A stretch of DNA of 64,000 bases from assembly GCA_045804325.1 (NCBI GenBank), contig JBJMNJ010000035.1:423-64422 (forward strand), written 5' to 3'. Below are positions 8,006-37,861 of the stretch, piece by piece (position 1 is the stretch's first letter; each line of letters begins with the position of its first letter). A program made the position numbers and the translations under genes. Under the pieces are notes generated by a model. It was given only the letters and a program-made list of their open reading frames with translations, did not search any database and was not told where the DNA came from. Source of the stretch: Gemmatimonadaceae bacterium. Its GTDB lineage: Bacteria; Gemmatimonadota; Gemmatimonadetes; Gemmatimonadales; Gemmatimonadaceae.

Positions 8006-8085
8006 GCGTGGCTCCGAGGGTGAACGCGGCGGGACGGGCCTGCCACGCCACCATCGGCCGCGCGCCCGCCCGGGGCAACGCCGGA

Positions 8086-8114
8086 GTGACGGACCGCGCC
8101 GGCGCCGTGACGGA
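8086..8114. promoter_or_regulatory. candidate LytTR-type binding site (direct repeat)
   Basis: GTGACGGAcCGC at 8086 and GTGACGGAgCGC at 8107 match at 11 of 12 positions. They are 21 bp apart start to start. The site lies between the LytTR regulator stop (8128) and the NTF2-like gene start (8005). Confidence 0.35.
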
Positions 8115-8127
8115 GCGCCGCGCCCGC

Positions 8128-8930
8128 TCAGCCCCGCAGCAGCGCCTGCACGCGCGCGCCGTACGCGCGGCCGCTGTCCACGCGCACGCCGCCGCGCAGG
8201 TGCAGCCGGTACTCGCCATGCCCGAGCGGCTCCACGCGCTCGATCCGCTCCGCGGCCACGATGGCCGAGCGGTGCACGCGAACGAAGCGCGAGGGGTCCA
8301 GCCGCGCCTCGAGCGCCTTCATCGTCTGCCGCACGAGGTGGACGCGACCCTGCGCGTGGAGCGCCGCGTAGTTCCCCTCCGCCTCCACCCACTCGACGTC
8401 GTCCGCCTGCACGAAGTAGTAGCCCTTCGGCGAGCGCACGAGGAAGCGCTGCGCGTAGCGCGGCGCCGTGCCGAGCCGCGCGAGCAGCGCGTCCATCGCG
8501 ACCGCCGACGCGCCGCCGTCGCCGGCGCCCGCGAGCCGCGCCTCCAGGCGTGCCATCGTGCGCGCGAACCGGTCGCGGTCCACCGGCTTGAGGAGGTAGT
8601 CCGCCGCGCTCACCTCGAAGGCCCGCAGCGCGAACGCGTCGTACGCCGTCACGAAGACGACCGCAGGAGCCTCGGCGCCCTCCGAGCCCGCGATGGCCTC
8701 CGCCACCTCGAGCCCGTCGAGCCCGGGCATGCGCACGTCGAGGAACACGACGTCCGGCCGCTGCTCGAGGATCGCCTCCACCGCCTGCGGCCCGTTGCGG
8801 CACTCGGCCACCACCTCCCACCCCGGGTGGCGCGAGACGAGCTGCCGCAGCCGCTCGCGCGCGAGCGCCTCGTCGTCGGCGACGACCACTCGGCGCGCCG
8901 GTCGCGCGGCGTCCCGGGAGCGCGCGGCGC

Positions 8931-8934
<4 letters not shown>
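8128..8934 (-). CDS. LytR/AlgR-family response regulator (REC + LytTR DNA-binding domain)
   Basis: Frame of ORF 8128..9270. GTG at 8934 overlaps the kinase stop (GTGA). REC motifs VVVADDE...DVVFLDVRMPGLDG...VVFVTAY, and a LytTR region FLVRSPKGYYFVQADDVEWVEAEGNYAALH...VRVHRSAIV. Confidence 0.85.
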
Positions 8935-10019
<1,085 letters not shown>

Positions 10020-12740: not shown

Positions 12741-12769
12741 CCCTGCCTCCGGCGTGATACCTAGATGTT

Positions 12770-12882
12770 CGACAACAAGGTTCCGTCACGGTGCGTCGTG
12801 AGGCGACGCCTGTCAAGCCTCGTCCGGTAGACGCGGCCGGCCGCCGGAGGGTTGGGCGGTTGCCTTGACGTCCGACAACAAG
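12770..12882. promoter_or_regulatory. divergent promoter region with a 10-bp direct repeat CGACAACAAG (two copies)
   Basis: CGACAACAAG occurs at 12770-12779 and 12873-12882, in the 190-bp gap between the permease (start 12740, minus strand) and the PadR gene (start 12931, plus strand). TTGACG sits at 12865-12870. Confidence 0.3.
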
Positions 12883-12930
12883 CACCGCATCGTCCGGGCG
12901 ACGAGAGACGTCTCCACACAGGGCCCCGCC

Positions 12931-13260
12931 ATGCGCGACCGCACCGACCTGCTCCAGGGCACCCTCGACCTGCTCGTGCTGAAGAGCCTGAGCCTCGCGC
13001 CGCTGCACGGCTGGGGGATCTCGAAGCGCATCCGCCAGCTCTCGCGCGACGCCCTCCAGGTGAACCAGGGCTCGCTCTACCCCGCGCTCTACCGCCTCGA
13101 GGACCGCGGGCTGATCCGCGCCGCCTGGGGGGTGAGCCCCGAGGGGCGTCGCGCGAAGTTCTACTCGCTCACCGCCGCCGGCCGGCGGCAGCTCGAGGAG
13201 GAGCGCGCGCAGTGGCGCGACTTCGCCGCCGCGATGGAGCTCGTCCTCCAGGGCGCGTGA
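12931..13260 (+). CDS. PadR-family transcriptional regulator
   Basis: Frame of ORF 12865..13260, trimmed to ATG 12931. [34 protein letters not shown]...QGSLYPALYRLEDRGLI...KFYSLTAAG is a textbook PadR winged helix. Confidence 0.85.
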   Translation: MRDRTDLLQGTLDLLVLKSLSLAPLHGWGISKRIRQLSRDALQVNQGSLYPALYRLEDRGLIRAAWGVSPEGRRAKFYSLTAAGRRQLEEERAQWRDFAAAMELVLQGA

Positions 13261-14287: not shown

Positions 14288-14302
14288 GTATCCCTACTGC
14301 CT

Positions 14303-14647
14303 ATGAGCCCCGACCCCGCCCGCGGCGACCTCGCCCCCGGGATGCTCGAGCTCCTGATCCTCCGCACGCTCTCCGTGCAGACGATGCACGGCTACGCCAT
14401 CGCGCAGCAGATCGAGCGACTCTCCGAGGACGTCTTCCGCGTCGAGCAGGGCTCGCTCTACCCGGCGCTCGAGCGGCTCCAGCGGAAGGGCTGGGTGACC
14501 TCCGAGTGGAAGGAGACGCCCACGAAGCGGCGCGCGCGCTATTACACCATCACCCGCGCCGGCCACGAGCAGCTCGGCGAGGCGCTCACGCGCTTCGAGC
14601 GCACCACCCTCGCCATCGCCCGCGTCCTCCGCGGCGCGGGCGGCTGA
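14303..14647 (+). CDS. PadR-family transcriptional regulator
   Basis: 114-aa ORF. LELLILRTLSVQTMHGYAIAQQIERLSEDVFRVEQGSLYPALERLQRKGWV...RYYTITRAG. Confidence 0.9.
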   Translation: MSPDPARGDLAPGMLELLILRTLSVQTMHGYAIAQQIERLSEDVFRVEQGSLYPALERLQRKGWVTSEWKETPTKRRARYYTITRAGHEQLGEALTRFERTTLAIARVLRGAGG

Positions 14648-14661
14648 GCGCGGGGCGGCCC

Positions 14662-17340
14662 GTGTCCCGCCTGCTCGCCCTGCGCCACCGCCTGCGCGCC
14701 CTGCTGCGCCCCGGCGCGCACGCGCGCGAGCTCGCCGAGGAGCTCCGCTTCCACGAGGAGCTCGACGCCATGCACCGGCGTCACGCCGGCGCGAGCGCGG
14801 ACGCCGCGCGCCTCGCCGCCCGGCGCCGGCTCGGCAACGCCACCCGCATCACCGAGGAGGTCCGCGAGATGTCCGCGCGCCACCGGCTCGACGAGCTCCA
14901 GCAGGACCTGCGCTACGCCGCGCGCACGCTCCGCCGCGCCCCGGGCTTCACCGTGGGCGCCGTGCTCACCCTCGGCCTCGGGATCGGCGCGGCCGCGGCG
15001 ATGTTCACGGTGGTGGACGCGGTGCTCCTCCGCGCCCTCCCCTACGCCGACCCCGAGCGGCTCGTCGCGGTATGGACCGCCGGCACGTCGGGGGGCGAGC
15101 CGATGACCTCGTCCCCGCCCGACTTCCGCGAGCTCGCGGCCGCGCGGCGGACCTTTTCGGGCATGGCGGCTCACTACACCGTCGAGGTGAACGTCGCGGG
15201 CGGCGGGGAGCCCGAGCGCGTGAGCGGCGCGCGCGTGAGCCCCTCGCTCTTCGACGTGCTCGGCGTCGCCCCGTCGCTCGGGCGTGCCTTCGCCGAGGTG
15301 GAGGGCGACTGGGGACGGCACCGCGTCGCCGTGATCTCCGACGGCCTCTGGCGCCGCCGCTTCGGCGCCGACCCGCGAGTCATCGGCCGCACCATCACCC
15401 TCGACCGCGAGCCACACGTCGTGGTCGGCGTCGCGCCCCGCGCGCTCGCATTCCCCGCGCGGGGCCTGGACGTCTGGCTTCCGATCGCCTTCGCGCCCGG
15501 CGACCACTCGAACACGCGCGGCAACTACTTCCTGCAGATCGTCGCGCGCCTGCGCGGCGGCGCCTCGGCGGCCGGCGCCGCCGCGGAGCTCCGGCCCATC
15601 GCGCGGCGCGTGGCGGCGGAGCACGCCGACGCCGTGATGAAGGACGTCGTCGTGCGGCCGCTCCGCTCGGACGTCGTGGGAGGCGCCGCACGACCCCTCC
15701 TCGTGCTCGGCGGCGCCATCGCGCTCGTGCTGCTCGTCTCCTGCGCCAACGTCGCCGCGCTCGTGCTCGCACGCGGCTCGGCGCGCCGAGCGGAGATCGC
15801 CCTCCGCGCGGGGCTCGGCGCCAGCCGCGCGCGCATCGTCCGCCAGCTCATGACCGAGAGCCTCGTCCTCGGCGCGCTCGCCGGGGTGCTCGGCACCGCG
15901 CTCGCCGCGGCGGGGGTGCTGCTCGCCGTCCGCCACGCGCCGCCCGACCTCCCGCGCCTGCAGGAGGTTGCGGTAGGCGCGCGCACACTCACCGTGTGCG
16001 CCGCGCTCGCGCTCGCGACCACGGTCCTGTTCGGGCTCGTGCCGGCGCTCCGCCTCGCGCGCGCCGGGGTGGCCGACGCGCTGCGCGAGCGCACGCGCAC
16101 CGCGACCGGGCGCGCCGGGTACCGCGGGTACGCCGCGCTGGTCGCCGCACAGATGGCGCTGTCGGTGGTGCTCCTCGCCGGGGCCGGCCTCCTCCTGCGG
16201 AGCTTCGCGCGGGTCATGGCGGTGGACCCCGGCTTCCGCGCCGAGCGCGTGCTCTCGATGGCGGTGGCGCTCCCGGAGGGGGCGTACCCGACGGCCGAGC
16301 GCACGGCGCAGTTCCTCGACGCGGTGCTCGAGCGCGCGCGGGCGCTCCCCGGCGTGCGCGCCGCGGCGGCCACGTCGGGGTTGTCGTTGGGCGGCGGGTG
16401 GTGGGGCAAGATGCTCAGCGTGGCGGGGCGCCCTGCCCCGCGGACGATGGGCGAGGTCCCGTCCGTGGGATACCGCGTGGTGAGCCGCGACTACTTCGCG
16501 ACGCTGGGCGTCGCGCTGCGCAGTGGACGGACGTTCGGGCCCGACGACCGCCGCGGCGGCCCGGGCGTCGCCGTCATCAACGAGACGGCAGCGCGCAGGT
16601 TCTGGGGCGGCGAGAGCCCGCTCGGGAAGACGATCTGGCTCGGGCCGCCGGAGGCGATGGTCAGCGGACACGTCCCCGGCGGCTACCACTTCCCGCGCCT
16701 CGAGGTCGTCGGCGTCGTGGGCGACGAGCGCTTCTCCGCGCTCGACGAGCCGCCCGTGGCCGAGGTGTATCAGCTCTACGAGCAGGTGACGGAGACGGCC
16801 TCCGTCATGTACCTCGCCGTGCGCGCCGACGGTGACCCCGCTGCCCTCGCGGCGTCGGTGCGCGCGGCCGTCCGCGCCGTGGATCCGCTGCAGCCCGTCG
16901 CGGACGTCGCGACCATGAGCGCGCGCCTCGAGCGCGCCACGGGCGCGCGCCGCTTCACGCTCGGGTTACTCGGCGGCTTCGCCGCGCTGGCGCTCGGGCT
17001 CGCGGCCGTGGGGCTGTACGGGGTGATCGCGTACACCGTGGCGGAGCGTCGGCGCGAGCTCGCCGTGCGGCTCGCGCTGGGGGATACGGCGGCGGGGGTC
17101 GTCAGGCTCGTCGTGGGGCGCGCCATGCGTCCGGTGGTCCTCGGCGTGGCGGCGGGAGTGGCGCCGGCACTCGCGCTCGCCGGAGTCGTGCGCGCGCTGC
17201 TCTACGGCGTGTCGCCCACCGACCCCGCGGCGTTCGCCGGAGCGGTCGTCACGCTGCTCGCCGCGGCGCTCGCCGCGAGTGCGCTGCCCGCGTGGCGCGC
17301 CTCGCGCCTGGGGCTCGCGGAGACGCTGCGCGGCGAGTAG
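14662..17340 (+). CDS. ADOP-type MacB/FtsX duplicated orphan permease
   Basis: Frame of ORF 14506..17340, trimmed to GTG 14662, which is 15 nt after the PadR stop. N-terminal extension ELRFHEELDAMHRRH...RRLGNATRITEEVREM, then LRYAARTLRRAPGFTVGAVLTLGLGIGA, and two FtsX modules. Confidence 0.9.
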   Translation: MSRLLALRHRLRALLRPGAHARELAEELRFHEELDAMHRRHAGASADAARLAARRRLGNATRITEEVREMSARHRLDELQQDLRYAARTLRRAPGFTVGAVLTLGLGIGAAAAMFTVVDAVLLRALPYADPERLVAVWTAGTSGGEPMTSSPPDFRELAAARRTFSGMAAHYTVEVNVAGGGEPERVSGARVSPSLFDVLGVAPSLGRAFAEVEGDWGRHRVAVISDGLWRRRFGADPRVIGRTITLDREPHVVVGVAPRALAFPARGLDVWLPIAFAPGDHSNTRGNYFLQIVARLRGGASAAGAAAELRPIARRVAAEHADAVMKDVVVRPLRSDVVGGAARPLLVLGGAIALVLLVSCANVAALVLARGSARRAEIALRAGLGASRARIVRQLMTESLVLGALAGVLGTALAAAGVLLAVRHAPPDLPRLQEVAVGARTLTVCAALALATTVLFGLVPALRLARAGVADALRERTRTATGRAGYRGYAALVAAQMALSVVLLAGAGLLLRSFARVMAVDPGFRAERVLSMAVALPEGAYPTAERTAQFLDAVLERARALPGVRAAAATSGLSLGGGWWGKMLSVAGRPAPRTMGEVPSVGYRVVSRDYFATLGVALRSGRTFGPDDRRGGPGVAVINETAARRFWGGESPLGKTIWLGPPEAMVSGHVPGGYHFPRLEVVGVVGDERFSALDEPPVAEVYQLYEQVTETASVMYLAVRADGDPAALAASVRAAVRAVDPLQPVADVATMSARLERATGARRFTLGLLGGFAALALGLAAVGLYGVIAYTVAERRRELAVRLALGDTAAGVVRLVVGRAMRPVVLGVAAGVAPALALAGVVRALLYGVSPTDPAAFAGAVVTLLAAALAASALPAWRASRLGLAETLRGE

Positions 17341-19726: not shown

Positions 19727-20122
19727 CTACTCGGCGTCCTCCGGATCGCGGAGGTCGCCTCGACGCCGCCGCGGCGGGAAGCCGGGCGGCCGCACGGACT
19801 TCCACGGCCGGCGCCCGCCGCGCGACACGCGCGGCGGGAACTGCAGCTCGAGCTGGGCGCGGTCGGCGGCGTCGGAGCCCGGCAGCGCGCCGAGCATGCG
19901 CGCCGACCGCCAGAACATCAGGAGGCGGATGGGCGCCCGGTGGCCGCCGAACGGCGTCCGCGCGACGGCCAGCGCCTCCTCGCGCACCTCGCGCGGGATG
20001 CGCCGCGCCTCGAGCTCGCAGAGGCGCTCGACGTTGCCGACGTCGCGCTCCTCCACCGAGGCGTGGAGCTCGGCCAGCACCGCGAGCAGCGGCGGGCGCT
20101 TCGCGCGGTCGCGGCGCGTCAC
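19727..20122 (-). CDS. hypothetical basic protein (131 aa)
   Basis: Frame of ORF 19727..20197. GTG at 20122 overlaps the stop of the upstream mini-ORF (GTGA). Very high GC3, Arg-rich C-terminus, no family recognised. Confidence 0.5.
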   Translation of the reverse strand: MTRRDRAKRPPLLAVLAELHASVEERDVGNVERLCELEARRIPREVREEALAVARTPFGGHRAPIRLLMFWRSARMLGALPGSDAADRAQLELQFPPRVSRGGRRPWKSVRPPGFPPRRRRGDLRDPEDAE

Positions 20123-20265
20123 GAGTGCGCGACCCCGTAGAGGACGAGCGCCGCGATCACCCACAGCACGACCACCAGCCAGACCGCGGTGCGCCATTCC
20201 TGCGAGGCACGGCGCGCGACGCGGCGCATGGAGTCGGTGACGGGGCGCATGCTGCTCGCTCGCAT
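20119..20265 (-). CDS. 48-aa single-pass membrane peptide (hypothetical)
   Basis: ATG at 20265 is 1 nt after the TGA of the upstream ORF. MRASSMRPVTDSMRRVARRASQEWRTAVWLVVVLWVIAALVLYGVAHS with high GC3. Confidence 0.45.
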   Translation of the reverse strand: MRASSMRPVTDSMRRVARRASQEWRTAVWLVVVLWVIAALVLYGVAHS

Positions 20266-20266
20266 G

Positions 20267-21052
20267 TCACCGCGCTGCCCGCGGCAGGTGCAGCTCCGAG
20301 CCACACCGCGGGCACCGTCCGGTGAGCGTCGCTGGCCCGTAGCGGCTGGCGCGCGCGGGCGCAGCAGGCGAGCCCGCGCGGCGCCGGCCCACGCGGACGC
20401 TCGCGCCGCAGGGGCACGAGGCGACGCCGGGGGCCGACCACGCCGCGAACGGCGCACGCGCGCCGCGCGCCTGCACTGCCGCCGGGACGACGTCCCTCAC
20501 CTCGCGCGCCGCCTCGGCGCCGTCGCCCTCGCGCCGCGACGCACCGAGCGCCAGGAGCGACAGCCGCTCGAACCAGAGGAGGACCCGCACCTCGTACGTC
20601 CCCTCGAGCTCGCGAATCATCGCGACGAGCGCGCGGTAGGTGGCGGGGGCCGGCTCGTCGTGCTCGGCGCGGAACGCCGAGAGGCAGGCGGCGAGGTCGT
20701 CGAGCGAGAGCGTCGTCGGGTACTCGTTGACGGGGTCCGTGATGCGCGCCCACGGCTCGCGCGTGCGCCACCGCTCGGCGTCCCCCGCCGCCACCCACGC
20801 GTCCGCGTCCTCCGCGCTCACCGTGCGCGGCCCCGGCGCGACGTACTCGCCGACCACGCGCAGGGTGTAGTCGTCGAGCACCGCCCAGGACACGTCGGCC
20901 GGCAGCTCCGCGCGGAACGTGCGGCCCCCTGCCTCGCCGGAGGCGATGATGCGGAAGAGCCGCGGGTCGTGCGCGAGGAACGGGCGCGCGTAGCGCCACC
21001 ACTCGCGGCCGGGCACCCGGCACTCGACGTGGGCGTGGGAGAGCCACGCCAT
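20267..21052 (-). CDS. hypothetical protein, paralogue B of the ligD-adjacent unknown family, with C-terminal zinc-ribbon-like CxC...CxxC
   Basis: Frame of ORF 20267..21070. ATG at 21052 is 4 nt after the ligD TAG. Motifs AHVECRVPGREWWRYA and PATYRALVAMIRELEGTYEVRVLLWF, with a C-terminal CPCGASV...GRCPRCGSELHLP. Confidence 0.65.
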   Translation of the reverse strand: MAWLSHAHVECRVPGREWWRYARPFLAHDPRLFRIIASGEAGGRTFRAELPADVSWAVLDDYTLRVVGEYVAPGPRTVSAEDADAWVAAGDAERWRTREPWARITDPVNEYPTTLSLDDLAACLSAFRAEHDEPAPATYRALVAMIRELEGTYEVRVLLWFERLSLLALGASRREGDGAEAAREVRDVVPAAVQARGARAPFAAWSAPGVASCPCGASVRVGRRRAGSPAAPARASRYGPATLTGRCPRCGSELHLPRAAR

Positions 21053-21056
21053 CCGG

Positions 21057-23102
21057 CTAGCGGTCACCACGGACGATCCCCTCCAGTCGGTTGCGGCGCC
21101 GCATGGCGGCCGCCCACAGGTCGCCCGCGCGCGCGAGCCGGTCGGGCACCGTCGCGACGTCGAACTCGCGCGGGTCGAGCCGCTCGTCGAGCTCGTCCCA
21201 CGCGAGCGGCGTCGATACGGTCGCGCCCGGCCGCGCGCGCACCGAGTACACGCTGGCGACGGTCTTTCCCCTGATGTTCTGCAGGTAGTCCACGTAGATG
21301 ACGCCCGCCGCGCGCTTCGCGACGCTGCGCTCGACGGTCGCCTCGCGCGGGTGCCGCAGCGCCACGTGCGTCGCGATGAGCTGCGCGAGCACGCGCGCCG
21401 CGTCGGCGGGCGTGCCCGGCTCGAGCGGGAGCACGATGTGCAGCCCGGTGGCGCCCGAGGTCTTGGGCGTTCCGTGAAGGCCGAGCGCGTCCATCGCCTC
21501 CTTCACGCGGAGTGCGACCTCCACCACGCGGCGGAACGGCGCGCGCGGCCCCGGGTCGAGGTCCACGATCGCGTAGTCCGCCGACTCGGTGTCCGGGACG
21601 CGCCCGTGCCACGGGTCCACCGAGATGGCGCCCAGCTGCACCGTGTAGAGGAGCGTGAGGAGGTCGCCGCCGACGAGCCGCGCCTCGTCGGCGCCGTCGG
21701 CGCTCCGCACGGACTCCACGCGTACGCCCGCCGGCACCCGCTCCGGCGCCCGCTGCTGGTAGAACGCCGGCGCGTCCACGCCGTTCGGGAAGCGGCGCAG
21801 GACGAGCGGGCGGTCGGCGACGGCGGGCAGGATCGCGCGCGCCACCAGCGCGTAGTAGCGCATGACGTCGCCCTTCGTCACGCCGGCGCGTCCGAAGAAG
21901 GGCTTCCCGAGGTTCGTGACGTCGAGCGTGCGGCCGGGGCCGAGCCAGAGCGTGCCCGCACCGCCCTCCATCTCGATCGCGTCGAGCTGCGCCACGACGT
22001 CCATGGGCGTGAAGCCCTCGAGCACCGAGATGCGGCGCCGCGCCCACGGGAGACGAGGCCGCGGCGGCGCCGCGGTGGACGCGACCACGCGGCGCCCGCG
22101 CGCCACGACGCGCCCGGCGCGGCCCGGCGCACTCTCGCGGCGCACCTCGCGCGGCGGCTTGTCGTCGCGCACGCCGAGGAAGACCGGCTGGCGGAGCACC
22201 GCGTCGGCGGTCCACTCGTTGAACCGCACCTCCACGACCACGCTCGGGCGCACCCAGTGCGCGCGCTCGCGCGTGCGCGGCGGGTTCGCGAAGGGCGAGG
22301 TCGCGCGCTCGAGCGGCGCGAGGCGCGCGTAGACGTCGGCCAGCGCCTGGCGCGTGAAGCCCGCGCCGACGGCGCCCGAGAAGACGAGCCGGTCCTCGTC
22401 GTCGCGCACGCCGACGAGCAGGGCTCCGATGTGCTCGCGCGAGTTGCGCGGCTCGGTGAAGCCGCCGACGACGAACTCCTGCTGCAGCTCCGCCTTCACC
22501 TTGAGCCAGGCGCCCGTGCGCTTCCCCGGCTCGTAGGCGGCGTCGAGGCGCTTGGCGATGACGCCCTCCCACGCGTGGGCGTGCGCGTGCGCGAGCGCCT
22601 CGTCGCCGCCCATGCGCAGCGACTCGGCGAGCACGAGGCCCGCGGGCGGACGCCGGAGCAGCCGCTCGAGCCGCCGCCGGCGCTCCGCGTACGGCTCGTC
22701 GACGAGGCGGTCGTCCCCCTCGAGCAGCAGGTCGAAGGCGACGAACGCCGCCGGCGCCGCCCCGGCCAGCCGCGCGGCCTCGCCGGGCGAGGCGTGGATG
22801 CGGCCCTGGAGGTCCTGGAATCGCCCGAGCGTGCCGTCGGCGCGCCGGGCGACGATCTCGCCGTCGAGCACGAGCGGCGCGCCCGCGCGCGCCGCGAGCG
22901 CGGAGAGCGCCGCGACGACCTCGGGGAACTGCGCGCCCTTGTCGTTGCCGTTGCGGGAGACGAGCGACGCCGACGCGCTCGCCGCGTAGGCGAGCACGCG
23001 CACGCCGTCGTACTTCGCCTCGAACGCCCACCCCTCGCCGGCCGGCGGCGCGGCGGCGGGGCGGGCGAGCATCGGGCTGAATCGGGCGGCGCGGCGCGTC
23101 AT
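21057..23102 (-). CDS. ligD: ATP-dependent DNA ligase LigD (ligase + polymerase/primase domains, no phosphoesterase domain seen)
   Basis: Frame of ORF 21057..24164, trimmed to ATG 23102, which overlaps the ku stop (ATGA). Adenylation motif EAKYDGVR. The C-terminal half (LWLGPGRTLDVTNLGKPFF...FPNGVD...TSGATGLHIVLPL...IYVDYLQN) matches the LigD polymerase domain. Confidence 0.9.
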   Translation of the reverse strand: MTRRAARFSPMLARPAAAPPAGEGWAFEAKYDGVRVLAYAASASASLVSRNGNDKGAQFPEVVAALSALAARAGAPLVLDGEIVARRADGTLGRFQDLQGRIHASPGEAARLAGAAPAAFVAFDLLLEGDDRLVDEPYAERRRRLERLLRRPPAGLVLAESLRMGGDEALAHAHAHAWEGVIAKRLDAAYEPGKRTGAWLKVKAELQQEFVVGGFTEPRNSREHIGALLVGVRDDEDRLVFSGAVGAGFTRQALADVYARLAPLERATSPFANPPRTRERAHWVRPSVVVEVRFNEWTADAVLRQPVFLGVRDDKPPREVRRESAPGRAGRVVARGRRVVASTAAPPRPRLPWARRRISVLEGFTPMDVVAQLDAIEMEGGAGTLWLGPGRTLDVTNLGKPFFGRAGVTKGDVMRYYALVARAILPAVADRPLVLRRFPNGVDAPAFYQQRAPERVPAGVRVESVRSADGADEARLVGGDLLTLLYTVQLGAISVDPWHGRVPDTESADYAIVDLDPGPRAPFRRVVEVALRVKEAMDALGLHGTPKTSGATGLHIVLPLEPGTPADAARVLAQLIATHVALRHPREATVERSVAKRAAGVIYVDYLQNIRGKTVASVYSVRARPGATVSTPLAWDELDERLDPREFDVATVPDRLARAGDLWAAAMRRRNRLEGIVRGDR

Positions 23103-23947
23103 GCGGTCCTCCGCTTCCTTCTCACCGTCTTGCCCGCCGCGGCCTTGGTGGCCGCGCGCGCCGCCGGCCGCCGCTTCCCTTTCGCGAGGCTCTCCTGGAG
23201 CCGCGCCAGGAGGTCCACGACGGGCGTGCTCTCCGGCTCGTCCGGCTCGTCGAGCTTGACCTTCCGGCCCTTGAGCTTCGCCTTGATGACGCGCTGGAGG
23301 TTCTCGCGGTACTCGTCCTTGTACTTCCCCGGCGTGAAGGGCTCGGCGAGGTTCGCGATGAGCTGCTCGGCCATCTGCACCTCCTGCGGCCGCACGCCCG
23401 CGCCGTCGGGGAAGCGGAGCGAGCCGACGTCCACCAGCTCGCTCGCGAAGCGCATGATCTCGAGCACCAGCGCCTCCTCGACGACGCGCACGGCCGCGAG
23501 GTGGTGCGAGTTGGAGCGCATCGTGATCTTGCCGATGCCGACCATCCCGCTGCGGCGCATCGCCTCGCGCAGGAGCGCGTACGCCTTGTCGCCGTCCTTG
23601 CCGGGGAGCAGGTAGTACGGCGCCTCGAAGAAGCGCGGGTCGATCTCCTCCGCGCGCACGAAGTCGAGGATCTCGAACGTCTTCGACGAGACGAGGGCGG
23701 CGGCCTTGAAGTCGTCGTCGTCGAGCACGACGAACTTGCCCTTCGCGTACTCGTAGCCCTTGACGATGTCCTCCCACGGGACGACGTCGCCCTCCTGCTC
23801 GCAGACGCGCTGGTACTTGATGGGCGAGTGGTCGCGCTTGTGGAGCTGGCGGAAGCTGATGCGCTCCCCGGCGCGCACGGCGGAGTGCAGCTCGACGGGA
23901 AGGTGCACGAGCCCGAACGTGAGGGATCCCTTCCAGATAGGTCGCAT
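23099..23947 (-). CDS. ku: non-homologous end-joining protein Ku
   Basis: Frame of ORF 23099..24034, trimmed to ATG 23947. MRPIWKGSLTFGLVHLPVELHSAV...ISFRQLH...PIKYQRVCE...GYEYAKGKFVVL is the canonical bacterial Ku core. Lys/Arg-rich C-terminal tail. Confidence 0.95.
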   Translation of the reverse strand: MRPIWKGSLTFGLVHLPVELHSAVRAGERISFRQLHKRDHSPIKYQRVCEQEGDVVPWEDIVKGYEYAKGKFVVLDDDDFKAAALVSSKTFEILDFVRAEEIDPRFFEAPYYLLPGKDGDKAYALLREAMRRSGMVGIGKITMRSNSHHLAAVRVVEEALVLEIMRFASELVDVGSLRFPDGAGVRPQEVQMAEQLIANLAEPFTPGKYKDEYRENLQRVIKAKLKGRKVKLDEPDEPESTPVVDLLARLQESLAKGKRRPAARAATKAAAGKTVRRKRRTA

Positions 23948-23978
23948 CGCTGGCGGCGCTCGCGGTCCCGAGTTCGTG

Positions 23979-24017
23979 TCGCGAATTCGCATCGCGAATT
24001 CGCATCGCGAATTCGCG
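23979..24017. promoter_or_regulatory. three tandem 13-bp units (tcgcgaattcgca x2, tcgcgaattcgcg), each with a GCGAATTCGC palindrome, in the ku leader/promoter
   Basis: Read directly at 23979-23991, 23992-24004 and 24005-24017, which is 32-70 nt upstream of the ku ATG. The AATT cores stand out in GC-rich DNA. Confidence 0.55.
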
Positions 24018-24035
24018 GAGACGGATGGCGCCACC

Positions 24036-24298
24036 GCCTAACGCATGGAAAGGGCCATTGTGGATATCCACACGGAGTCCACATTCGTGATGTGCAGAAC
24101 CGCCGACTTTTCCACAAGCCGTTGCCCTACAAGGGCATAGGCCCCTCGCCATTGTGGTCGGCATCGTACAGCCTAACGTCAGCCGGCGGCCGGGTGCGGG
24201 CCGGGTGGACTCCGGCGGGATGCGCCCGGGATGCCGATCGGCGGTGGCCGACCTCCCCCGTTAGGCGCCCGGGCGCGCGAGATCGATCGACGTTAGGC
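24036..24298. repeat. clustered 8-mer GCCTAACG / CGTTAGGC (2 forward, 2 reverse copies)
   Basis: GCCTAACG at 24036 and 24171; CGTTAGGC at 24259 and 24291. A fifth copy (GCCTAACG) lies at 24859. Confidence 0.5.
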
Positions 24299-24458
24299 AG
24301 GGCCGGTCTCTCGCGCGGACGCGTCACCGAATTCGTGGTCACGGCGCGACGCCCTCGGGCGCGCTCGCATTTATGCACAGAGGTTTTCAACGCGGCGAAG
24401 CGGCGCGGCGACAAGAACTTCCGGCGTTTTCCACGGGTTTCCACAGGGCTTATCCACA
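24059..24458. promoter_or_regulatory. DnaA-box cluster (oriC-like or DnaA-regulated region)
   Basis: TGTGGATATCCACA palindrome at 24059-24072 (two inverted aTATCCACA boxes). TTTTCCACA at 24108-24116. TTATgCACA at 24371-24379. TTTTCCACg at 24427-24435. gTTTCCACA at 24437-24445. Perfect TTATCCACA at 24450-24458. A roughly 41% GC patch follows at 24471-24504. Confidence 0.6.
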
Positions 24459-24586
24459 AGCGGCACAACGACTTAGACCTATTTTGCCTCTTGTCTTTCT
24501 CGAGCGTCGATCCTAGCATTCTGCCCGCGCCGCGCTCCGCTCCTGGGCGCCGCGCTCCCGCCCCCTTCGACCTCCCCGGAACCACG

Positions 24587-24910
24587 ATGCAGCTGCTCCC
24601 CTGCGCCCCCCCGGTCGGCCCCCTCGAGCGTGCTCCCATGACCGCGCTGCGCCCCGACGGCGAGGGCGAGTGGGTCGGGTTCTGGGCGGGGGACCACGCC
24701 TACTACGCGCGGCACACGCGCGAGGACGGCGGGGCGGAGTGGTTCGAGGTGCGCGCGGAGGAGGGCGGCGCCGGGCCTCGGCCCGTGCGGCCGGCGACGC
24801 CGCGCTCCGTCGGGGTGCTGCCGCCGCGCCGCGCGCTGAGCGCCGTCGGGCGCCTGGGGCCTAACGCGAGCTTCGCGCTCGTGTGGAGCTCGCGCCGCCG
24901 ACGAGCGTGA
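24587..24910 (+). CDS. hypothetical small protein (start 24587 or 24638)
   Basis: This is the tail of ORF-track frame 23501..24910. From MTALRPDGEGEWVGFWAGDHAYYARHTREDGGAEWFEVRAEE onward the third codon positions are almost all G/C. No family recognised. Confidence 0.45.
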   Translation: MQLLPCAPPVGPLERAPMTALRPDGEGEWVGFWAGDHAYYARHTREDGGAEWFEVRAEEGGAGPRPVRPATPRSVGVLPPRRALSAVGRLGPNASFALVWSSRRRRA

Positions 24911-24937
24911 CCGCCGCGGCGTGAGGCCCCCGCCGCC

Positions 24938-25792
24938 CTAGGCCGTCAGTCCCGGCAGGTTGAGCTGCTGCGTGTGTCCCTGGGAGACGCGCAGCGCCGC
25001 CAGGTGCACCCACGAGAACAGTACGTCGAGGCGCAGGTCGCCCGACGTCGCTTCCTTCGCGAGGCCGAAGTGGATCGAGAGCGCGCGGCCGATGTTCGCG
25101 GGACGCTGGTGGACGAAGAACATCAACAGATCCGTGGCGGCGTCCACCGCGTGGTAGAGCGCGAACAGGTAGAATCGCATCCGCTCCGCGTCGCGCTGCG
25201 CGAGGGCGAGCAGCAGCGCGGCCTCGCGCGAGGCGCGCTCCTCGCGCACCCGCGCGATGATCGCCGTGGCGCGCGGCAGCTCCGCGCCCCCCTCGCGACG
25301 CAGCAGCTCCGTCCAGGCGTCGGCGAGGTGCTCGAGCAGCGCGACGTCCCACGGGCGCGCGTCGCGGTCGTCGGGCGCGGGGTGCAGCCGCTGCCACCGC
25401 TCCCACTGCGGCGCGAGCGAGCCGACCTCCGCGAGCGCCGCGAGCTGGAGCTTCCGGATGGCCAGGGCGCGCGGCTCGTCCGGCGCGGGCAGCGCCGAGT
25501 AGAGGAGGAAGGCGCGGGACGCGGCGAGCTCCACCTGCTCCTGCGCCGTCGCGAGCTCGTCGGGATCGGCGAGCGCGAGGTGGGAGGCGAGGTCGCGCCC
25601 CGCGAGGTCGTACGCGGCCGCGAGCTGCACCGCCGCCTCGCACTCCGCGGCGTCGAGCGGCGAGACCGGCTCGGCGGCCTCGCGCGGGTCGTAGGCCGCG
25701 ACGGCCGCGGCACGCGCCAAGAGCGCCTGCGCCGGCCCGAAGGCGGCCACCGCCCAGTGGCGGTCGACGTGCCGAGCGCTGTGCAGCTGCAC
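24938..25792 (-). CDS. hypothetical alpha-helical protein (start uncertain)
   Basis: Frame of ORF 24938..26344. High GC3 begins near 25900. The first plausible canonical start is GTG 25792 (VQLHSARH...). C-terminus ...RFYLFALYHAVDAATDLLMFFVHQRPANIGRALSIHFGLAKE. No family recognised. Confidence 0.45.
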   Translation of the reverse strand: MQLHSARHVDRHWAVAAFGPAQALLARAAAVAAYDPREAAEPVSPLDAAECEAAVQLAAAYDLAGRDLASHLALADPDELATAQEQVELAASRAFLLYSALPAPDEPRALAIRKLQLAALAEVGSLAPQWERWQRLHPAPDDRDARPWDVALLEHLADAWTELLRREGGAELPRATAIIARVREERASREAALLLALAQRDAERMRFYLFALYHAVDAATDLLMFFVHQRPANIGRALSIHFGLAKEATSGDLRLDVLFSWVHLAALRVSQGHTQQLNLPGLTA

Positions 25793-25966
25793 GGAGGGGG
25801 AAGTGGGGACGCCACGACGGCGCCCCGGGTCCGCAGTGCCCGAGTACGCCCACCAGATCGGCCGCCGAGGGCGTCGCGCGGCGGCCAGCTCCAGCCTGAA
25901 GCTCCCCGTCTGACGCCCAGCTCGATCGTACGGTAACGAACGCGTCCATTCCGCGAGAATCGACCG

Positions 25967-26452
25967 ATGTGCCTGGAACCCGTCTCCTCGCCCCGCCTGG
26001 CCATGCTCTCGCGACTCGCCGCCGCCGAGGCGGCGTCGCACGACTTCTCTCAGCCTTCCTCTTCCGCATCGATGACCGTGCTCCCCTCCAGCCCCCTCGC
26101 GCGCGACGTCGCCGCCTGCCCCGACTGCCACGCGCGGGTGACCGCCGCGGGCGTCAGCTCGCTCTGCCAGCGCCACGAGGCCGTCTGGATGTTCGAGCAG
26201 GCGGTGGGCGCCTCGGCCGAGCCGCTCGCGGGGGACGTCGGTCCTCTGCTCCAGCAGGTGCTCACGACCGGGGACCGCGGCCGCGACCTGCTCGACGCGT
26301 TCCGCCGGCAGGCGAGCGCCCTCAACCTCGTGTGGGAGGCGCACGTACGGGGCGCGGCCCGACTTCCCGAGGAGGTGGCGGAGCTCGTGCGGTCGGCCCG
26401 CGAGCGGGCGCCGGACCTCCTGGCCGGTCGGCCAGTGCCGCGGAGCGCCTGA
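25967..26452 (+). CDS. hypothetical protein with CxxC...CxxH motif (start 25967 or ATG 26072)
   Basis: 161-aa ORF with high GC3 from about 26072 (MTVLPSSPLARDVAACPDCHARVTAAGVSSLCQRHEAVW...). No family recognised. Confidence 0.45.
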   Translation: MCLEPVSSPRLAMLSRLAAAEAASHDFSQPSSSASMTVLPSSPLARDVAACPDCHARVTAAGVSSLCQRHEAVWMFEQAVGASAEPLAGDVGPLLQQVLTTGDRGRDLLDAFRRQASALNLVWEAHVRGAARLPEEVAELVRSARERAPDLLAGRPVPRSA

Positions 26453-31620: not shown

Positions 31621-32973
31621 ATGTCACTGCCCGCGGCCGGCGTCGGCCGGGCCCGCGGAGACGTTTCGCCGGAGGGCGGACACATGGATCCCACCACGCA
31701 GTCCACGCTCGCCGCGCGCGCGACCGATAGCGCGCCGCTCGTCCCACCCGACCCGCCGCGCCGCGGCCCCGTACTGGTCGCCACCGACGGCGCGCGACAC
31801 GCCGACGCGGCGCTGCTGGTCGGGAAGCTCCTCGCCGAGCGCGCCGGCGCGCCGCTCCGGGTGCTCAGCGTGGTGGACACGGTGCTGCTGCCGACGACGG
31901 CCGGCAGGCCGAACCCCAGCGCGCAGCCGCTCGACGAGATGCGCTGCGCCGAGCGGCTGCGCGCGGTGCACGCGCAGGTGGATCGACTCATCCGCGGCGC
32001 CGACCTCCAATCGACCGACGTCGTCACCGGCATCCCCGCGCGCGCCATCGCGCGCATCGCGGCCGAGTGCGACGCGCGCGCGATCGTCGTCGGCCTCGGC
32101 GCGCACCGCCTGCGCGACCGCGTGGTCGGCACCGAGACGGCGCTGCAGCTCACCCGCCTCGCCGACGTGCCCGTGCTCGCGGTGCCCCCGGGCGTCACGG
32201 CGCTCCCGCGACGCGCCGTGGTCGCGGTGGACTTCTCGCCGTTCAGCCTCCGCGCCGCGCGCGCCGCGCTCGAGCTCGTCCGGCGCGGCGCCACCGTCTA
32301 CCTCGCGCACGTCGTCTCCAGCATCGGCGACCTCACCGGCGCGCTCGAGCGCTCGGAGGACGACGTGGGCGTGGACGAGGCGTTCGCGCACCTGGCGGGC
32401 GACCTGTCCGTGCGAGACGACGTCGTGCTGGAGGTCGCCGCGCTCCACGGCGAGCCCGCCGAGTCCGTGCTCGAGTTCGCGCAGGCCGGCGGCGCCGACC
32501 TGATCGTGGCGGGAAGTCACGGACACGGCTTCTTCGAGCGGCTCGTCGTCGGCAGCGTCGCGACGAAGATCCTCCGCTCGGCGGCGTGCATGGTGCTGGT
32601 CGTACCGCCGTCGCCGGCGCGGGCGCCGGGCCGCGAGCGCCCCGACCCCGGCGTCGAGATGGAGCGCTGGGAGCAGCGCCTGCGCGCGTTCACGCAGCGG
32701 AACGCCGGCCGGCGGTGCTCGCTCGAGGTGGACGACCCCGCGCTCGGCGCGCAGGTGCAGGCGCGCGACTACCCGTTCCTCGGCGCCGACTACGACCACC
32801 GCGACCACCGCGTGGACATCGCGCTCGGCGACGAATCCACCGGCGGCCGGCACCTCACGCGCACGATCCCCGACGTGCACGCCGTGGACGTCGTGGAGGC
32901 GGGCCCGGGACACGTGGACGTGCTCCGCGTCTCGCACGGGAGGGGTCAGTCGCTCGTGTTCGTCCCGCGGTGA
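31621..32973 (+). CDS. tandem universal stress protein (UspA) domains with a C-terminal DUF5335-like domain
   Basis: Frame of ORF 31516..32973. ATG at 31621 (GGGAGG upstream) or ATG at 31684. Two Usp modules (VLVATDGARHADAAL...; AVVAVDFSPFSLRAA...GADLIVAGSHGHGFFERLVVGSVATKILRSAACMVLVVP). The roughly 120-aa tail RWEQRLRAFTQRNAGRRCSLEVDDPALGAQ... is assigned to DUF5335 only tentatively. Confidence 0.75.
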   Translation: MSLPAAGVGRARGDVSPEGGHMDPTTQSTLAARATDSAPLVPPDPPRRGPVLVATDGARHADAALLVGKLLAERAGAPLRVLSVVDTVLLPTTAGRPNPSAQPLDEMRCAERLRAVHAQVDRLIRGADLQSTDVVTGIPARAIARIAAECDARAIVVGLGAHRLRDRVVGTETALQLTRLADVPVLAVPPGVTALPRRAVVAVDFSPFSLRAARAALELVRRGATVYLAHVVSSIGDLTGALERSEDDVGVDEAFAHLAGDLSVRDDVVLEVAALHGEPAESVLEFAQAGGADLIVAGSHGHGFFERLVVGSVATKILRSAACMVLVVPPSPARAPGRERPDPGVEMERWEQRLRAFTQRNAGRRCSLEVDDPALGAQVQARDYPFLGADYDHRDHRVDIALGDESTGGRHLTRTIPDVHAVDVVEAGPGHVDVLRVSHGRGQSLVFVPR

Positions 32974-34871: not shown

Positions 34872-37493
34872 TCACCCCGCGCGAAGGGCGACGTTCGGGT
34901 CGACGCTCGCCGCGCGGCGCACGGGCACGAGCAGCGCGGCCGCGCCGCAGACGGCGAGCAGCAGCACGGCGAGCGCCAGGGCGACCGGGTCGAACGGGGA
35001 CACGCCGTAGAGCAGCCCGCGCACCGTCCGCGCGACGAGCAGCACGCCGAGCGCACCGCCCGCGAGCCCGAGCGCCATCCACGCGGCGCCCTGGCGCAGG
35101 ACGAGCGCGGCGATCCCGCGGGGGGTCGACCCGAGCGCGAGGCGCACGCCGAACTCCCGCTCGCGCGCCGCGGCCATGCTGGCGAACATCGCGTACACGC
35201 CGACGGACGCGAGCACGAGCGCGAGCGCGCCGAACGCCGTCAGGAGGAGGACCGGCAGGCGGCGGCCCACGAGGCGCTCGTCCACGATTGCGCGCAGCGT
35301 CGTCGGCGCGCGCAGCGGCACCGCCGGATCGATCGCCGCCATCAGGCGCCGCATCGCGGGCAGGACGGCGAGCGGGTCGCCCTGCGTCCGCACGAGGAAG
35401 TCGCGGCCGCCCCACATGTCGTCCTGCCGGTTGGTCGCGTAGGCCATGGGGCCCGGAGTCGGGAGCGCGGGGTCCACGCGCACGTCGCGCACGACGCCGA
35501 CCACCACGCCCCACCGCTCCGCCGTGTGCGGGCTGATGCGGATGCGCGAGCCGACGGCGGCGCCCCGCGGCCAGTAGCGTCGCGCCATGGCCTGGCTGAC
35601 GATGATCGCCGGCGGCGCGTCGGGCCCGTCCTGCGGCCCGAACACGCGGCCCTCCACGAGGCCGATGCCCATGAGCCGGAAGTAGTCGTCGGACACCGAC
35701 ATGTAGGGGATGAACGTGGGGCCCTCGCCCGCGAGGGTGACGCCCTCGATCGTGAGCTTGTTCTGGCTCATCGTGGTCGACGGGATCTGCGTCACGCTGG
35801 CCACGGCGAGCACCCCCGGCTGCGCGGCGAGTCGCTCGTGCAACTCCTGGAACACCGCGTTGCGCGCCTGCGGCGTGGCGTAGCTCGCGGCGGGGAGCTC
35901 CACGCGGGCCGTCAGCACGCCGTCCGGCGTGAAGCCGAGCGGCGCGTTCGCGATCGCGAGCAGGCTCCGCACGAGCATCCCCGCCCCCGCGAGCAGGCTG
36001 AGGGAGAGCGCGAGCTGCGTCGCGACGAGCGCGCCGCGGAGTCCCCGCGCGCGCCGCCCCTCGCTCGTGGCGCGCCCCTCCTCGCGGAGCGTGCCCTGCG
36101 GCTGCCGGCGTGCCGCGGACAGGGCGGGCGCGAGGCCGAAGCCGACGCCGACGAGCAGGGCGGCGAGCAGCGTGACGAGCACGGCGCCGGGGTCGAGGGA
36201 GAGGTCGGCGTAGGGCGGCAGGGCGGAGCGCGCGAACGTCCGGACCGCCGCGAGCCCGAGGAGCGCGAGCGCGAGCCCCACCACGGCGCCGAGCATCGCC
36301 AGCAGCGTGGTCTCCGTCAGGAGCTGGCGGACCAGCCGGCCGCTGCCGGCCCCGAGGGCGACGCGCACGGCGAACTCGCGGCGCCTCGCGATGGTCCGCG
36401 AGAGCAGCGCGCCGGCGAGGTTGGCGCACGTGATGAGCAGGACGAGGCCGGCGCTCGTCATGAGCAGCAGGAGCGGCGTGCGCGTCTCGCCGACCATCGA
36501 GTCGCGGAGCGGCACCACGACGAGGCTCCGCCCCCGGTCCGTCTGCGGGTGCTCGCGCTCGAGGTCCGCGGCGAGGCGGTCGAGCTCGCGCTTGGCGGTC
36601 TCCGCGCTGGCGCCCGGCGCGAGGCGGCCGACGACGCCCAGCCAGTGCTGGTCGCGCGCGGAGGCGCCGCCGCGCAGTATCGCCTTCAGGTCGAGTGGGA
36701 AGACGATGTCGGCCGCGCCCATCGGACCCACGTAGTCGGCGGGCAGCACGCCGACCACCTCCGCCGCGCTGCGCTCGATGCGGAGCGTGCGCCCGACGAC
36801 GCTCGAGTCGCCGCCGAACTCCCGCTGCCAGGCGTCGTGGCTGAGCAGCGCGGCGTTGGAGGTGGCGTCCGCCGCGGTGAGCGTGCGACCGAGCGCGGCG
36901 TGCACACCCAGGGTGGAGAAGTAGTCCGGGGTGACGAACGCTGCCGCGAGCACGCGTGCGCCGGCATCCCCGAGGAACGCGACGTCGAACGTGCTGAAGT
37001 TGAACGACGCCACGGACGAGAACGACCGCGCGCGCTCGTCGATGTCCGCCGCCGCGCCGGGACTCACGGAGGAGCGCTCCATCTCCGAGGCGGCGAAGCG
37101 CGAGTACACGCGCACGAGGCGGTCCGCGTCGCGGTACGGGAGGGCGTCGAGGAGCACTGACTTCACGACGCCGAAGACGGCCGCGTTGGCTCCGATGCCA
37201 AGCGCCAGCGTCAGCACCGCCAGCAGCGCGAACAGCGGCGCGCGGCGGAGCTGGCGCAGGGCGAAGCGCACGTCGCGCGCGAGGGCGTCGAGCCAGAGCA
37301 CGCGGCGCGACTCGTAGAAGCGCTCCTGCGCGCCGGCGACGTTGCCGAAGCGCCGCCGCGCCTCGTCACGCGCGGCCTCCGCGCCCCACCCTTCGGCCCG
37401 CAGCTGCTCGGCCTCGAGCTCGATGTGCGCGCGGATCTCCTCGCCGAAGTCGGCGTCGGGGCGCGCGCGGCGCGCCCAGCGGTTCCATCTCAT
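34872..37493 (-). CDS. ADOP-type MacB/FtsX duplicated orphan permease
   Basis: Frame of ORF 34872..37646, trimmed to ATG 37493, which is 5 nt after the PadR stop. EEIRAHIELEAEQLRAEGWGAEAARDEARRRFGNVAGAQE, then DVRFALRQLRRAPLFALLAVLTLALGIGA, and two FtsX modules. Confidence 0.9.
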   Translation of the reverse strand: MRWNRWARRARPDADFGEEIRAHIELEAEQLRAEGWGAEAARDEARRRFGNVAGAQERFYESRRVLWLDALARDVRFALRQLRRAPLFALLAVLTLALGIGANAAVFGVVKSVLLDALPYRDADRLVRVYSRFAASEMERSSVSPGAAADIDERARSFSSVASFNFSTFDVAFLGDAGARVLAAAFVTPDYFSTLGVHAALGRTLTAADATSNAALLSHDAWQREFGGDSSVVGRTLRIERSAAEVVGVLPADYVGPMGAADIVFPLDLKAILRGGASARDQHWLGVVGRLAPGASAETAKRELDRLAADLEREHPQTDRGRSLVVVPLRDSMVGETRTPLLLLMTSAGLVLLITCANLAGALLSRTIARRREFAVRVALGAGSGRLVRQLLTETTLLAMLGAVVGLALALLGLAAVRTFARSALPPYADLSLDPGAVLVTLLAALLVGVGFGLAPALSAARRQPQGTLREEGRATSEGRRARGLRGALVATQLALSLSLLAGAGMLVRSLLAIANAPLGFTPDGVLTARVELPAASYATPQARNAVFQELHERLAAQPGVLAVASVTQIPSTTMSQNKLTIEGVTLAGEGPTFIPYMSVSDDYFRLMGIGLVEGRVFGPQDGPDAPPAIIVSQAMARRYWPRGAAVGSRIRISPHTAERWGVVVGVVRDVRVDPALPTPGPMAYATNRQDDMWGGRDFLVRTQGDPLAVLPAMRRLMAAIDPAVPLRAPTTLRAIVDERLVGRRLPVLLLTAFGALALVLASVGVYAMFASMAAAREREFGVRLALGSTPRGIAALVLRQGAAWMALGLAGGALGVLLVARTVRGLLYGVSPFDPVALALAVLLLAVCGAAALLVPVRRAASVDPNVALRAG

Positions 37494-37498
37494 CGCGA

Positions 37499-37861
37499 CT
37501 ACCCCTCCGCCGTCTCGGGCCCGAGGATGAGGGACACGGCCCGCACGAGCGAGAGCCACTGCGACGTCTCGCGGGCGAGCTGCTTGCGGCCGGCGGCGGT
37601 GAGCTCGTAATAGCGCGCCTTCCGGTTGTTCTCCGAGACGCCCCACTCGGCGCGCACCCAGCCGCGCGCCTCCAGGCGCTGGAGCGCGGGGTAGAGCGAG
37701 CCGTGGTCCACGAGGAGCGCCTCCTCGGAGCGCTGCTGGATGGCGCGCGCGATCCCCTGCCCGTGCGCGGGGCGGAAGACGAGCGTGCGGAGGATGAGAA
37801 GGTCGAGCGTGCCCTGGAGGATGGCGGCGCGCTCGTCGCGGGCGTCGTTTCGGGTAGCCAT
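37499..37861 (-). CDS. PadR-family transcriptional regulator
   Basis: 120-aa [59 protein letters not shown]...RYYELTAAG. Confidence 0.9.

Follow-up and report, generated by a model that had tools for sequence, protein, structure and literature searches.

In a 64-kb stretch of the genome of a Gemmatimonadaceae bacterium (hereafter the window, i.e., all 64,000 nucleotides analyzed), a 639-bp non-coding gap between the start of the end-joining gene ku (23947) and the start of a small open reading frame (ORF; 24587) carries a dense cluster of sites that resemble the boxes bound by the replication initiator DnaA. We favor, with moderate confidence, the view that this gap (23948-24586) is an extra-origin DnaA-box cluster serving as a bidirectional DnaA-responsive promoter region in a gene cassette specific to the Gemmatimonadota. 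The features on which this view is built, i.e., the boxes, their conservation, their fixed geometry relative to promoter-like hexamers, their modularity, and their gene partners, can be read directly from the window and from related genomes. A preliminary description of the window had put forward four explanations for the boxes, and the one in which DnaA acts as a transcription factor is the best supported, with the correction that the cluster is constantly accompanied by the small ORF rather than by ku.

The window has a GC content of 76% and the gap one of 66%. A plot of GC at third codon positions (GC3) delimits the gap and bears out the earlier assignment of the box-containing stretch as non-coding. 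The operon for non-homologous end joining had been placed right beside it, and both Ku and LigD are indeed recognized by Pfam; the best Ku match among GTDB representative genomes is only 63% identical, and look-ups of Ku and of the small-ORF protein by exact sequence gave no match. On the opposite side, the small ORF had been listed as a mere reading frame and proved to be a real gene, as indicated by a GC3 of 0.94 and by conserved homologues.

All seven DnaA-type boxes reported previously are found at their positions, and an eighth had been overlooked (TTCTGCACA, - strand, 24091-24099). Boxes with up to two mismatches thus number 8 in the gap compared to 0.64 expected, and none of 2000 first-order Markov simulations based on the composition of the gap itself (66% GC) reached this count. 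Of the seven boxes with no more than one mismatch that the 64-kb window holds, five fall into the gap; the expectation for the entire window is 0.42. The corresponding gaps of related genomes hold 9-12 boxes compared to 0.6-1.2 expected, again with 0 of 2000 simulations reaching the observed count. A significant DnaA-box cluster in non-coding DNA, as is expected of a chromosomal origin (oriC), is therefore present. The boxes form two groups, a mixed-orientation sub-cluster A on the side of ku and a same-direction sub-cluster B on the side of the small ORF, the latter including a trio of boxes spaced by 10 and 13 bp (Table 1).

The preliminary description had named a lack of conservation in related genomes as grounds for abandoning its proposal, and the boxes are conserved. 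We compared the window with loci of related genomes (given by L numbers), of which L163, L164, L085, L087, and L001 were retrieved via Ku (56-76% identical) and L169, L171, and L175 via the small ORF, as well as with the close relatives L081 (99% identical), L082, and L084 (both with Ku 86-89% identical). Sub-cluster A is kept box by box in L081, L082, L084, and L163, and in the three close relatives the boxes on the side of ku are intact while the surrounding DNA drifts; the box equivalent to 24108 is a perfect TTATCCACA in L082 and L084. A diverged form of the same module, GCAAC-N5-TGCTATCAACA-N4-TCCACA-N8-TGTGGAAAG, is found in L085, L087, L164, L169, L171, and L175. For sub-cluster B, the order, orientation, and spacing of boxes are kept in L163, L164, L085, L087, L169, L171, L175, and L001. 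Distant relatives share an entire architecture that comprises the small ORF, a pair of hexamers downstream of the box array, the 10-mer CAACGACTTA, the same-direction trio, two to three more boxes, a variable spacer, and the mixed-orientation second group. The spacer between the sub-clusters is conserved neither in sequence nor in composition, being T-rich in L087 and a 1.3-kb stretch with an ftsZ-like gene in L163.

The stretch that faces sub-cluster B is where a promoter can be proposed. The preliminary description had pointed to an AT-rich patch at 24471-24504 as a candidate DNA-unwinding element; its GC content of 41% was correctly given, but the proposed role is disfavored because its AT-richness is not conserved and the invariant positions are those of a -35 and a -10 element. 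More specifically, the patch overlaps the -35 half of a putative sigma-70-type promoter of the small ORF (TTGTCT-N17-TAGCAT). In nine lineages, TTG and TA...T are invariant and exactly 17 nt apart (TTGnnn-N17-TAnnnT), while the spacer between them is free in sequence, ranging by eye from AT-rich to very GC-rich (GC-rich in L163, L164, and L001). A conserved AT-rich unwinding element next to the boxes, as would be expected of oriC, is hence missing. Invariant hexamers around a free spacer are what the evolution of a sigma-70-type promoter would produce, not that of an unwinding element. In the same nine lineages, the -35 element follows the last box at a constant 32-33 nt, so that several intergenic boxes occupy conserved positions beside a promoter as expected of DnaA-responsive transcription. 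As a separate observation, an AT-rich block upstream of the -35 element contains a conserved TTATGGAAAA in L085, L087, L164, L169, L171, and L175, i.e., a box-like TTTTCCATA on the opposite strand that faces the trio; this motif is absent from the window, L163, and L001.

On the side of ku, a conserved block without boxes separates sub-cluster A from the gene (Table 1), and its sequence conservation suggests that it probably carries the promoter of the ku operon, of unassigned type. Between the A-side boxes and the downstream gene, a GG or AG-N10-GC pattern resembles the -24/-12 element of sigma-54 promoters, e.g., TGGCCC-N5-ATGC in the window (24037-24058, - strand) and TAGCAY-N5-TTGC in relatives (L087 9895-9920; L163 15027-15045), though it was spotted by eye and is too common in GC-rich DNA to be significant by itself.

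The gene that the cluster follows is the small ORF. All nine of the nine independent lineages with this gene have 6-11 boxes within 600 bp upstream of it, compared to 0-6 boxes (median 1) at 55 ku loci without the small ORF, the Gemmatimonadota among the latter having 0-2. Both sub-clusters are still present in L171 and L175, which have no ku-ligD; a 129-amino-acid homologue of the window gene at 19727-20197 sits directly beside sub-cluster A in L171, and in L175 this gene is a frameshifted remnant. Since the cluster persists without ku-ligD and is missing at ku loci that lack the small ORF, the latter is its constant partner. An early view of ours, that GTDB Gemmatimonadota have no boxes upstream of ku, turned out to be wrong for L001, where the small ORF is accompanied by 9 boxes with up to two mismatches. 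With the small ORF on one side and an operon that usually, but not always, starts with ku-ligD on the other, the gap has the layout of a bidirectional control region.

The two halves of this region can be separated. In L163, an ftsZ-like gene (8033-9073) is located between sub-cluster B (7887-7978) and sub-cluster A (9260-9309); it encodes a 346-amino-acid FtsZ paralogue (Tubulin and FtsZ_C domains), and sub-cluster A is common to this gene and the divergently oriented ku. A third cluster in the same locus (L163:15027-15090) is of the A type and aligns with the A modules of six other lineages. It lies ca. 5.7 kb from the A module beside ku and 6 kb from ku itself. Located 57 bp downstream of it is a paralogue of the gene that comes directly after ligD (20267-21097 in the window; also present in L163). 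One operator thus serves more than one promoter, as in a regulon, in this one case, and the re-use of the A module upstream of a related gene is how the operator of a transcription factor behaves. As far as these arrangements tell, A and B are separable modules.

To identify the likely binder without selecting on the full consensus, we tabulated the bases flanking every CACA in the gaps. They show a preference for T at box position 2 (60%), T at position 4 (71%), and C at position 5 (64%), with position 3 free, i.e., yTnTCCACA, which agrees with the DnaA-box family. Positions 2 and 4 are those that DnaA reads. Moreover, the mixed orientations and spacings of the boxes fit a monomeric binder. 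We infer from these sequence features that DnaA is the protein that binds the boxes and that it changes the transcription of the neighboring genes. It is improbable that the TCCACA repeats are instead operators of another DNA-binding protein, possibly one encoded in the cassette, whose likeness to DnaA boxes would be coincidental. Such a regulator would account for the inverted repeats that are typical of dimeric binders (TGTGGATATCCACA in the window, TGTCCACA-N6-TGTGGACA in L171), for the constant company of the same uncharacterized genes, and for additional conserved motifs outside the boxes (GCAAC, ATCGGTTAC, GAGTTAGCG). However, the flanking preference lengthens the match to 9 bp and includes the T at positions 2 and 4, perfect TTATCCACA boxes occur in the window as well as in L082 and L084, and the spacings vary (0, 6, 8, and 15 bp inverted; 10 and 13 bp direct) unlike those of a dimer with fixed geometry. 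In addition, no cassette protein has a recognizable DNA-binding domain or any match in Pfam or NCBIfam.

In the mechanism that we propose, DnaA would bind cooperatively to the five or six same-direction boxes at 24371-24458, ca. 35-120 bp upstream of the -35 element of the small ORF, whose transcription would be driven by the TTGTCT-N17-TAGCAT promoter. It would likewise bind the five mixed-orientation boxes at 24059-24116, ca. 110-170 bp upstream of the start of ku, and thereby control ku-ligD and two further genes. The end-joining operon and the small-ORF cassette would then be transcribed according to the amount or nucleotide state of DnaA, i.e., the replication status of the cell, and the dense array may also soak up DnaA. 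Our guess is that ku-ligD is repressed in replicating cells and released in non-replicating ones, when end joining is most useful. A link between ku-ligD and DnaA is biologically plausible, given that end joining is of greatest value to cells without a sister chromosome.

Several observations weigh against this reading. Around 11 boxes in ca. 500 bp are more than most known DnaA-regulated promoters have and are typical of origins. The hexamers of the promoter are weak, matching the E. coli consensus at 8 of 12 positions in the window, and a scan of 23800-25000 for consensus promoters and terminators returned nothing at threshold. The match at only 8 of 12 positions explains why a simple scan would miss the promoter, and weak match and negative scan together mean that the promoter is called from its conservation pattern by itself. 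On the side of ku, no promoter could be defined. Finally, we regressed GC3 skew on transcription strand and on the side of the gap, and the side coefficients are zero or positive in six of six loci (0.001, 0.006, 0.023, 0.025, 0.065, and 0.064), which is the polarity of an origin. For the relatives, however, skew was measured over flanks of 10 kb, which in four of the loci are homologous to one another, and the spread (standard deviation) among 50 control loci is 0.034. Overall, the GC3-skew evidence may lean slightly towards an origin.

An origin of this Gemmatimonadaceae clade that is not linked to dnaA, the first explanation of the preliminary description, was therefore considered in detail, and we regard it as unlikely. 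The box arrays would be the assembly region of DnaA, the AT-richer stretch by the trio would be the unwinding site, and the small ORF would be transcribed from an origin-flanking promoter. Promoters of this kind are known from gidA and mioC in E. coli and from hemE in Caulobacter. The 9-12 conserved boxes in 450-640 bp would suit such a function, and in the same way as in the basal unwinding system of oriC (a box pair, a spacer, DnaA-trios, and an AT-rich region) tandem same-orientation boxes, in similar number, face a stretch of lower GC. This stretch is the one with the lowest GC and reaches 67% AT over 49 bp in relatives with 64-66% GC, and in L087 and L171 the spacer is full of TTTTCG/TTTTCA repeats that weakly resemble boxes. 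Furthermore, the raw GC skew to the right of the element exceeds that to its left in six of six loci, the side coefficients are significant in L175 and L177, and only one such region per contig was found within the 20 kb examined. Unlike at oriC, however, the AT-richness is not a conserved trait: L163 and L164 are GC-rich between the hexamers, and in the window the patch reaches only 59% AT. In published unwinding modules, three or more NAN DnaA-trios are separated from a box by a spacer of 0-16 bp (PMC8287927). On the B side, neither the window nor L163 nor L001 has a run of at least three trios within this distance of a box. The only period-3 T run on this side starts 31 bp after the perfect box, and the single match of the trio scan in the window is a GC-rich run of 3-mers in sub-cluster A, with no match in L163 and L001.

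The genomic surroundings speak against an origin as well. In agreement with the preliminary description, which had seen neither dnaA nor dnaN, tblastn with DnaA, DnaN, and RecF of E. coli found none of the three genes in the window or the retrieved loci, ca. 2 Mb in all, and none within 10 kb of the element in any relative; Pfam likewise gave no such gene among the ca. 55 window genes screened. Gene orientation does not flip at the gap, as had also been observed, with the - strand holding 66% of coding bases on the left and 67% on the right. The GC3-skew side coefficient (0.001 +/- 0.009) and intercept (-0.002 +/- 0.010) of the window are both close to zero, so that it shows no measurable replication skew and the regression is uninformative there; its GC3 skew tracks the transcription strand, with C exceeding G on the coding strand (coefficient -0.075 +/- 0.009). 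The neighbors in the window are stress, sensor, and transporter genes rather than origin-type genes. In L163, moreover, a gene separates the two halves of the element, and another A module is found at a different site. We consider it quite unlikely that the chromosome of a large Gemmatimonadaceae clade from soil truly has its origin in this gap; such an origin would then be unlinked to dnaA/dnaN, have an end-joining operon alongside, lack a recognizable trio module, and contain a promoter within its unwinding side. Should it be an origin nonetheless, it would be a rare case of one unlinked to dnaA in a phylum whose origin is unstudied; a literature search on the Gemmatimonas origin gave nothing useful. 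The second explanation, a plasmid or chromid origin, found no support, as Pfam detected no rep, par, or origin-type domains among the ca. 55 window genes screened. As for iterons, the only other tandem repeat (13-bp unit, 23979-24016) is not conserved.

A role primarily in the control of DnaA itself, i.e., titration or inactivation as by datA or reactivation as by DARS sites with incidental effects on the neighboring genes, had been the third explanation and seems improbable to us as the main function. The datA and DARS sites combine 3-5 boxes with sites for IHF or Fis, and their layout is not centered on a promoter. In the gap, by comparison, no IHF-type site was identified in a search by eye only. 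Dense boxes that are conserved over large evolutionary distances would be in line with control of DnaA, and DnaA-box clusters of Bacillus subtilis indeed restrain initiation (PMC3245932). But the fixed geometry of the arrays relative to the promoter, their strict coupling to one gene cassette, and the re-use of the A module upstream of a paralogue point to gene control, which does not exclude an additional role in controlling DnaA. By analogy with the B. subtilis clusters, datA/DARS-like titration would be compatible with gene control by DnaA (PMC3245932).

Clusters of DnaA boxes outside oriC are known from other bacteria. In E. coli, datA, DARS1, and DARS2 are non-origin clusters that act on DnaA (PMC3245932). 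Those of B. subtilis (yqeG-sda, ywlC-ywlB, and yydA-yycS) are intergenic, located outside oriC, and restrain initiation while also regulating their neighbors, with sda being activated and ywlC and yydA repressed (PMC3245932). The element described here resembles them in its dense intergenic boxes, which in B. subtilis lie outside oriC by the promoters of DnaA-responsive genes, and in the possibility of titration (PMC3245932). The likeness may extend further, as sda encodes a small protein of a replication-status checkpoint and a small-protein gene is found beside the cluster here, too. Unlike the B. subtilis clusters, our element belongs to another phylum, has ku-ligD and a cassette as its putative targets, shows a bipartite bidirectional layout with ca. 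11 boxes, and is known from sequence alone. It also compares to DnaA-regulated promoters such as those of dnaA, nrdAB, or cell-cycle genes of Caulobacter, where boxes near the promoter tie transcription to the state of the initiator, which is putative in our case. Promoters autoregulated or regulated by DnaA usually have one to a few boxes.

By this analogy, the kind of element is familiar from B. subtilis, and the putative regulatory targets, i.e., ku-ligD and an uncharacterized cassette, are new. We know of no DnaA-regulated promoter that controls non-homologous end joining, and a literature search linking DnaA box, LigD, and non-homologous end joining gave nothing related as judged from title and abstract. 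If DnaA binds the gap, it would be the first indication of a bacterium that ties the expression of ku-ligD to its replication initiator. Likewise, a cassette found widely among Gemmatimonadota of soil (at least 534 small-protein clusters) would be responsive to replication status like sda in Bacillus.

The small-ORF protein that defines this cassette is 39% identical to its homologue in L087 (E 2e-16), and a profile search retrieved at least 534 homologous clusters that are all unnamed and belong to the Gemmatimonadaceae wherever labelled. An AlphaFold2 model predicts a five-strand beta domain (residues 1-57) followed by a disordered arginine-rich tail. Searches for its fold in the PDB gave no match with E <=0.001, and the sequence has no match in Pfam, NCBIfam, or PADLOC. 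The order of small ORF, 284-amino-acid gene, and 161-amino-acid gene is kept in L087, L163, L164, L169, L171, L175, and L177. The 284-amino-acid protein matches the PADLOC profile PDC-M23B, a phage-defense candidate, over the first 260 profile positions (E 3.9e-26) with no match in Pfam or NCBIfam; a literature search on PDC-M23 yielded nothing useful.

Table 1. Coordinates of the box cluster, its predicted promoter elements, and neighboring genes in the window
Feature	Position	Strand	Remarks
Sub-cluster A, ku side	24059..24116		palindromic pair, weak GAGTCCACA, TTCTGCACA (-), and TTTTCCACA (+)
Palindromic box pair TGTGGATATCCACA	24059-24072		inverted pair
Weak box GAGTCCACA	24073-24081		
Box TTTTCCACA	24108-24116	+	
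GC-rich variable spacer between A and B	24117..24370		three CCTAACG/CGTTAGG copies inside; a fourth outside at 24037-24043, ku side
Sub-cluster B, small-ORF side	24371..24458	+	all boxes directed at small ORF
Box TTATGCACA	24371	+	
Weak box TTTTCAACG	24384	+	
Box TTTTCCACG	24427	+	
Box GTTTCCACA	24437	+	
Perfect box TTATCCACA	24450	+	
Conserved 10-mer CAACGACTTA	24466..24475	+	between last box and promoter; nearly invariant in alignments A2 and A6
Putative sigma-70-type promoter of small ORF	24491..24519	+	-35 TTGTCT 24491-24496, 17-nt spacer, -10 TAGCAT 24514-24519
Conserved non-box block between sub-cluster A and ku	24037..24058	-	reads AATGGCCCTTTCCATGCGTTAGG; identical in window, L081, L082, and L084 despite diverged surroundings; similar in L163
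ku	23099..23947	-	divergent from control region; Pfam Ku, E 2e-48; best named homologues in Gemmatimonadaceae
ligD, ligase and primase-polymerase domains	21057..23102	-	start overlaps ku stop (ATGA); Pfam and translation
Two genes of conserved ku-side operon, 3' of ligD	19727..21097	-	tblastn; function unassigned
"208-aa family" gene	20267-21097	-	part of conserved ku-side operon
"129/152-aa family" gene	19727-20197	-	last gene of ku operon
Small ORF, 107 amino acids	24587..24910	+	constant partner of box cluster; GC3 0.94; conserved homologues
284-amino-acid gene	24938-25792	-	convergent with small ORF; conserved neighbor
161-amino-acid cysteine-motif gene	25967-26452	+	conserved neighbor of small ORF
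Stress-gene sites	31681-32973, 46588-47508, 47463-48586, 53580-54143, 61303-61536		

Beyond the boxes, the gap and its surroundings contain other repeated motifs. The 7-mer CCTAACG occurs 12 times in the window compared to 1.6 expected (24037, 24172, 24259, 24291, 24860, and seven other sites), though part of this excess may reflect the lower GC of intergenic DNA. Four copies are located in the gap, including an exact inverted pair (GCCTAACGTC at 24171-24180 and GACGTTAGGC at 24289-24298), and CGTTAGG is present in the spacers of L163 and L164, too. The leader of ku contains a perfect 13-bp tandem repeat, TCGCGAATTCGCA x 2.9 (23979-24016), each unit of which has the palindrome GCGAATTCGC. There is one copy fewer in the 99%-identical L081 and none in L082 and L084.

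Rfam and tRNA scans of the window gave no match. Over real genes in this GC-rich DNA, antisense "shadow" ORFs are found (e.g., 24974-25936, + strand, in the window and 8027-9160, - strand, in L087) that give tblastn matches between relatives and can mislead strand calls. We had considered L087:8027-9160 (-) as a gene co-directional with the small ORF and rejected it as the antisense shadow of the convergent gene of ca. 300 amino acids.

In the wider neighborhood, general-stress genes are abundant (Table 1), including those for two Usp proteins, AhpC, a DsbA-like thioredoxin, CsbD, and an ECF sigma factor beside a Ser/Thr kinase with TPR repeats. Five paralogous permease genes of the MacB/FtsX type are found within the 64 kb (290-2782, 10110-12755, 14638-17340, 34872-37502, and 57268-59751), three of them with a gene for a PadR regulator just upstream (12862-13260, 14288-14647, and 37499-37849). 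The same pairs of PadR and MacB/FtsX-type genes flank the element in L175 and L177.

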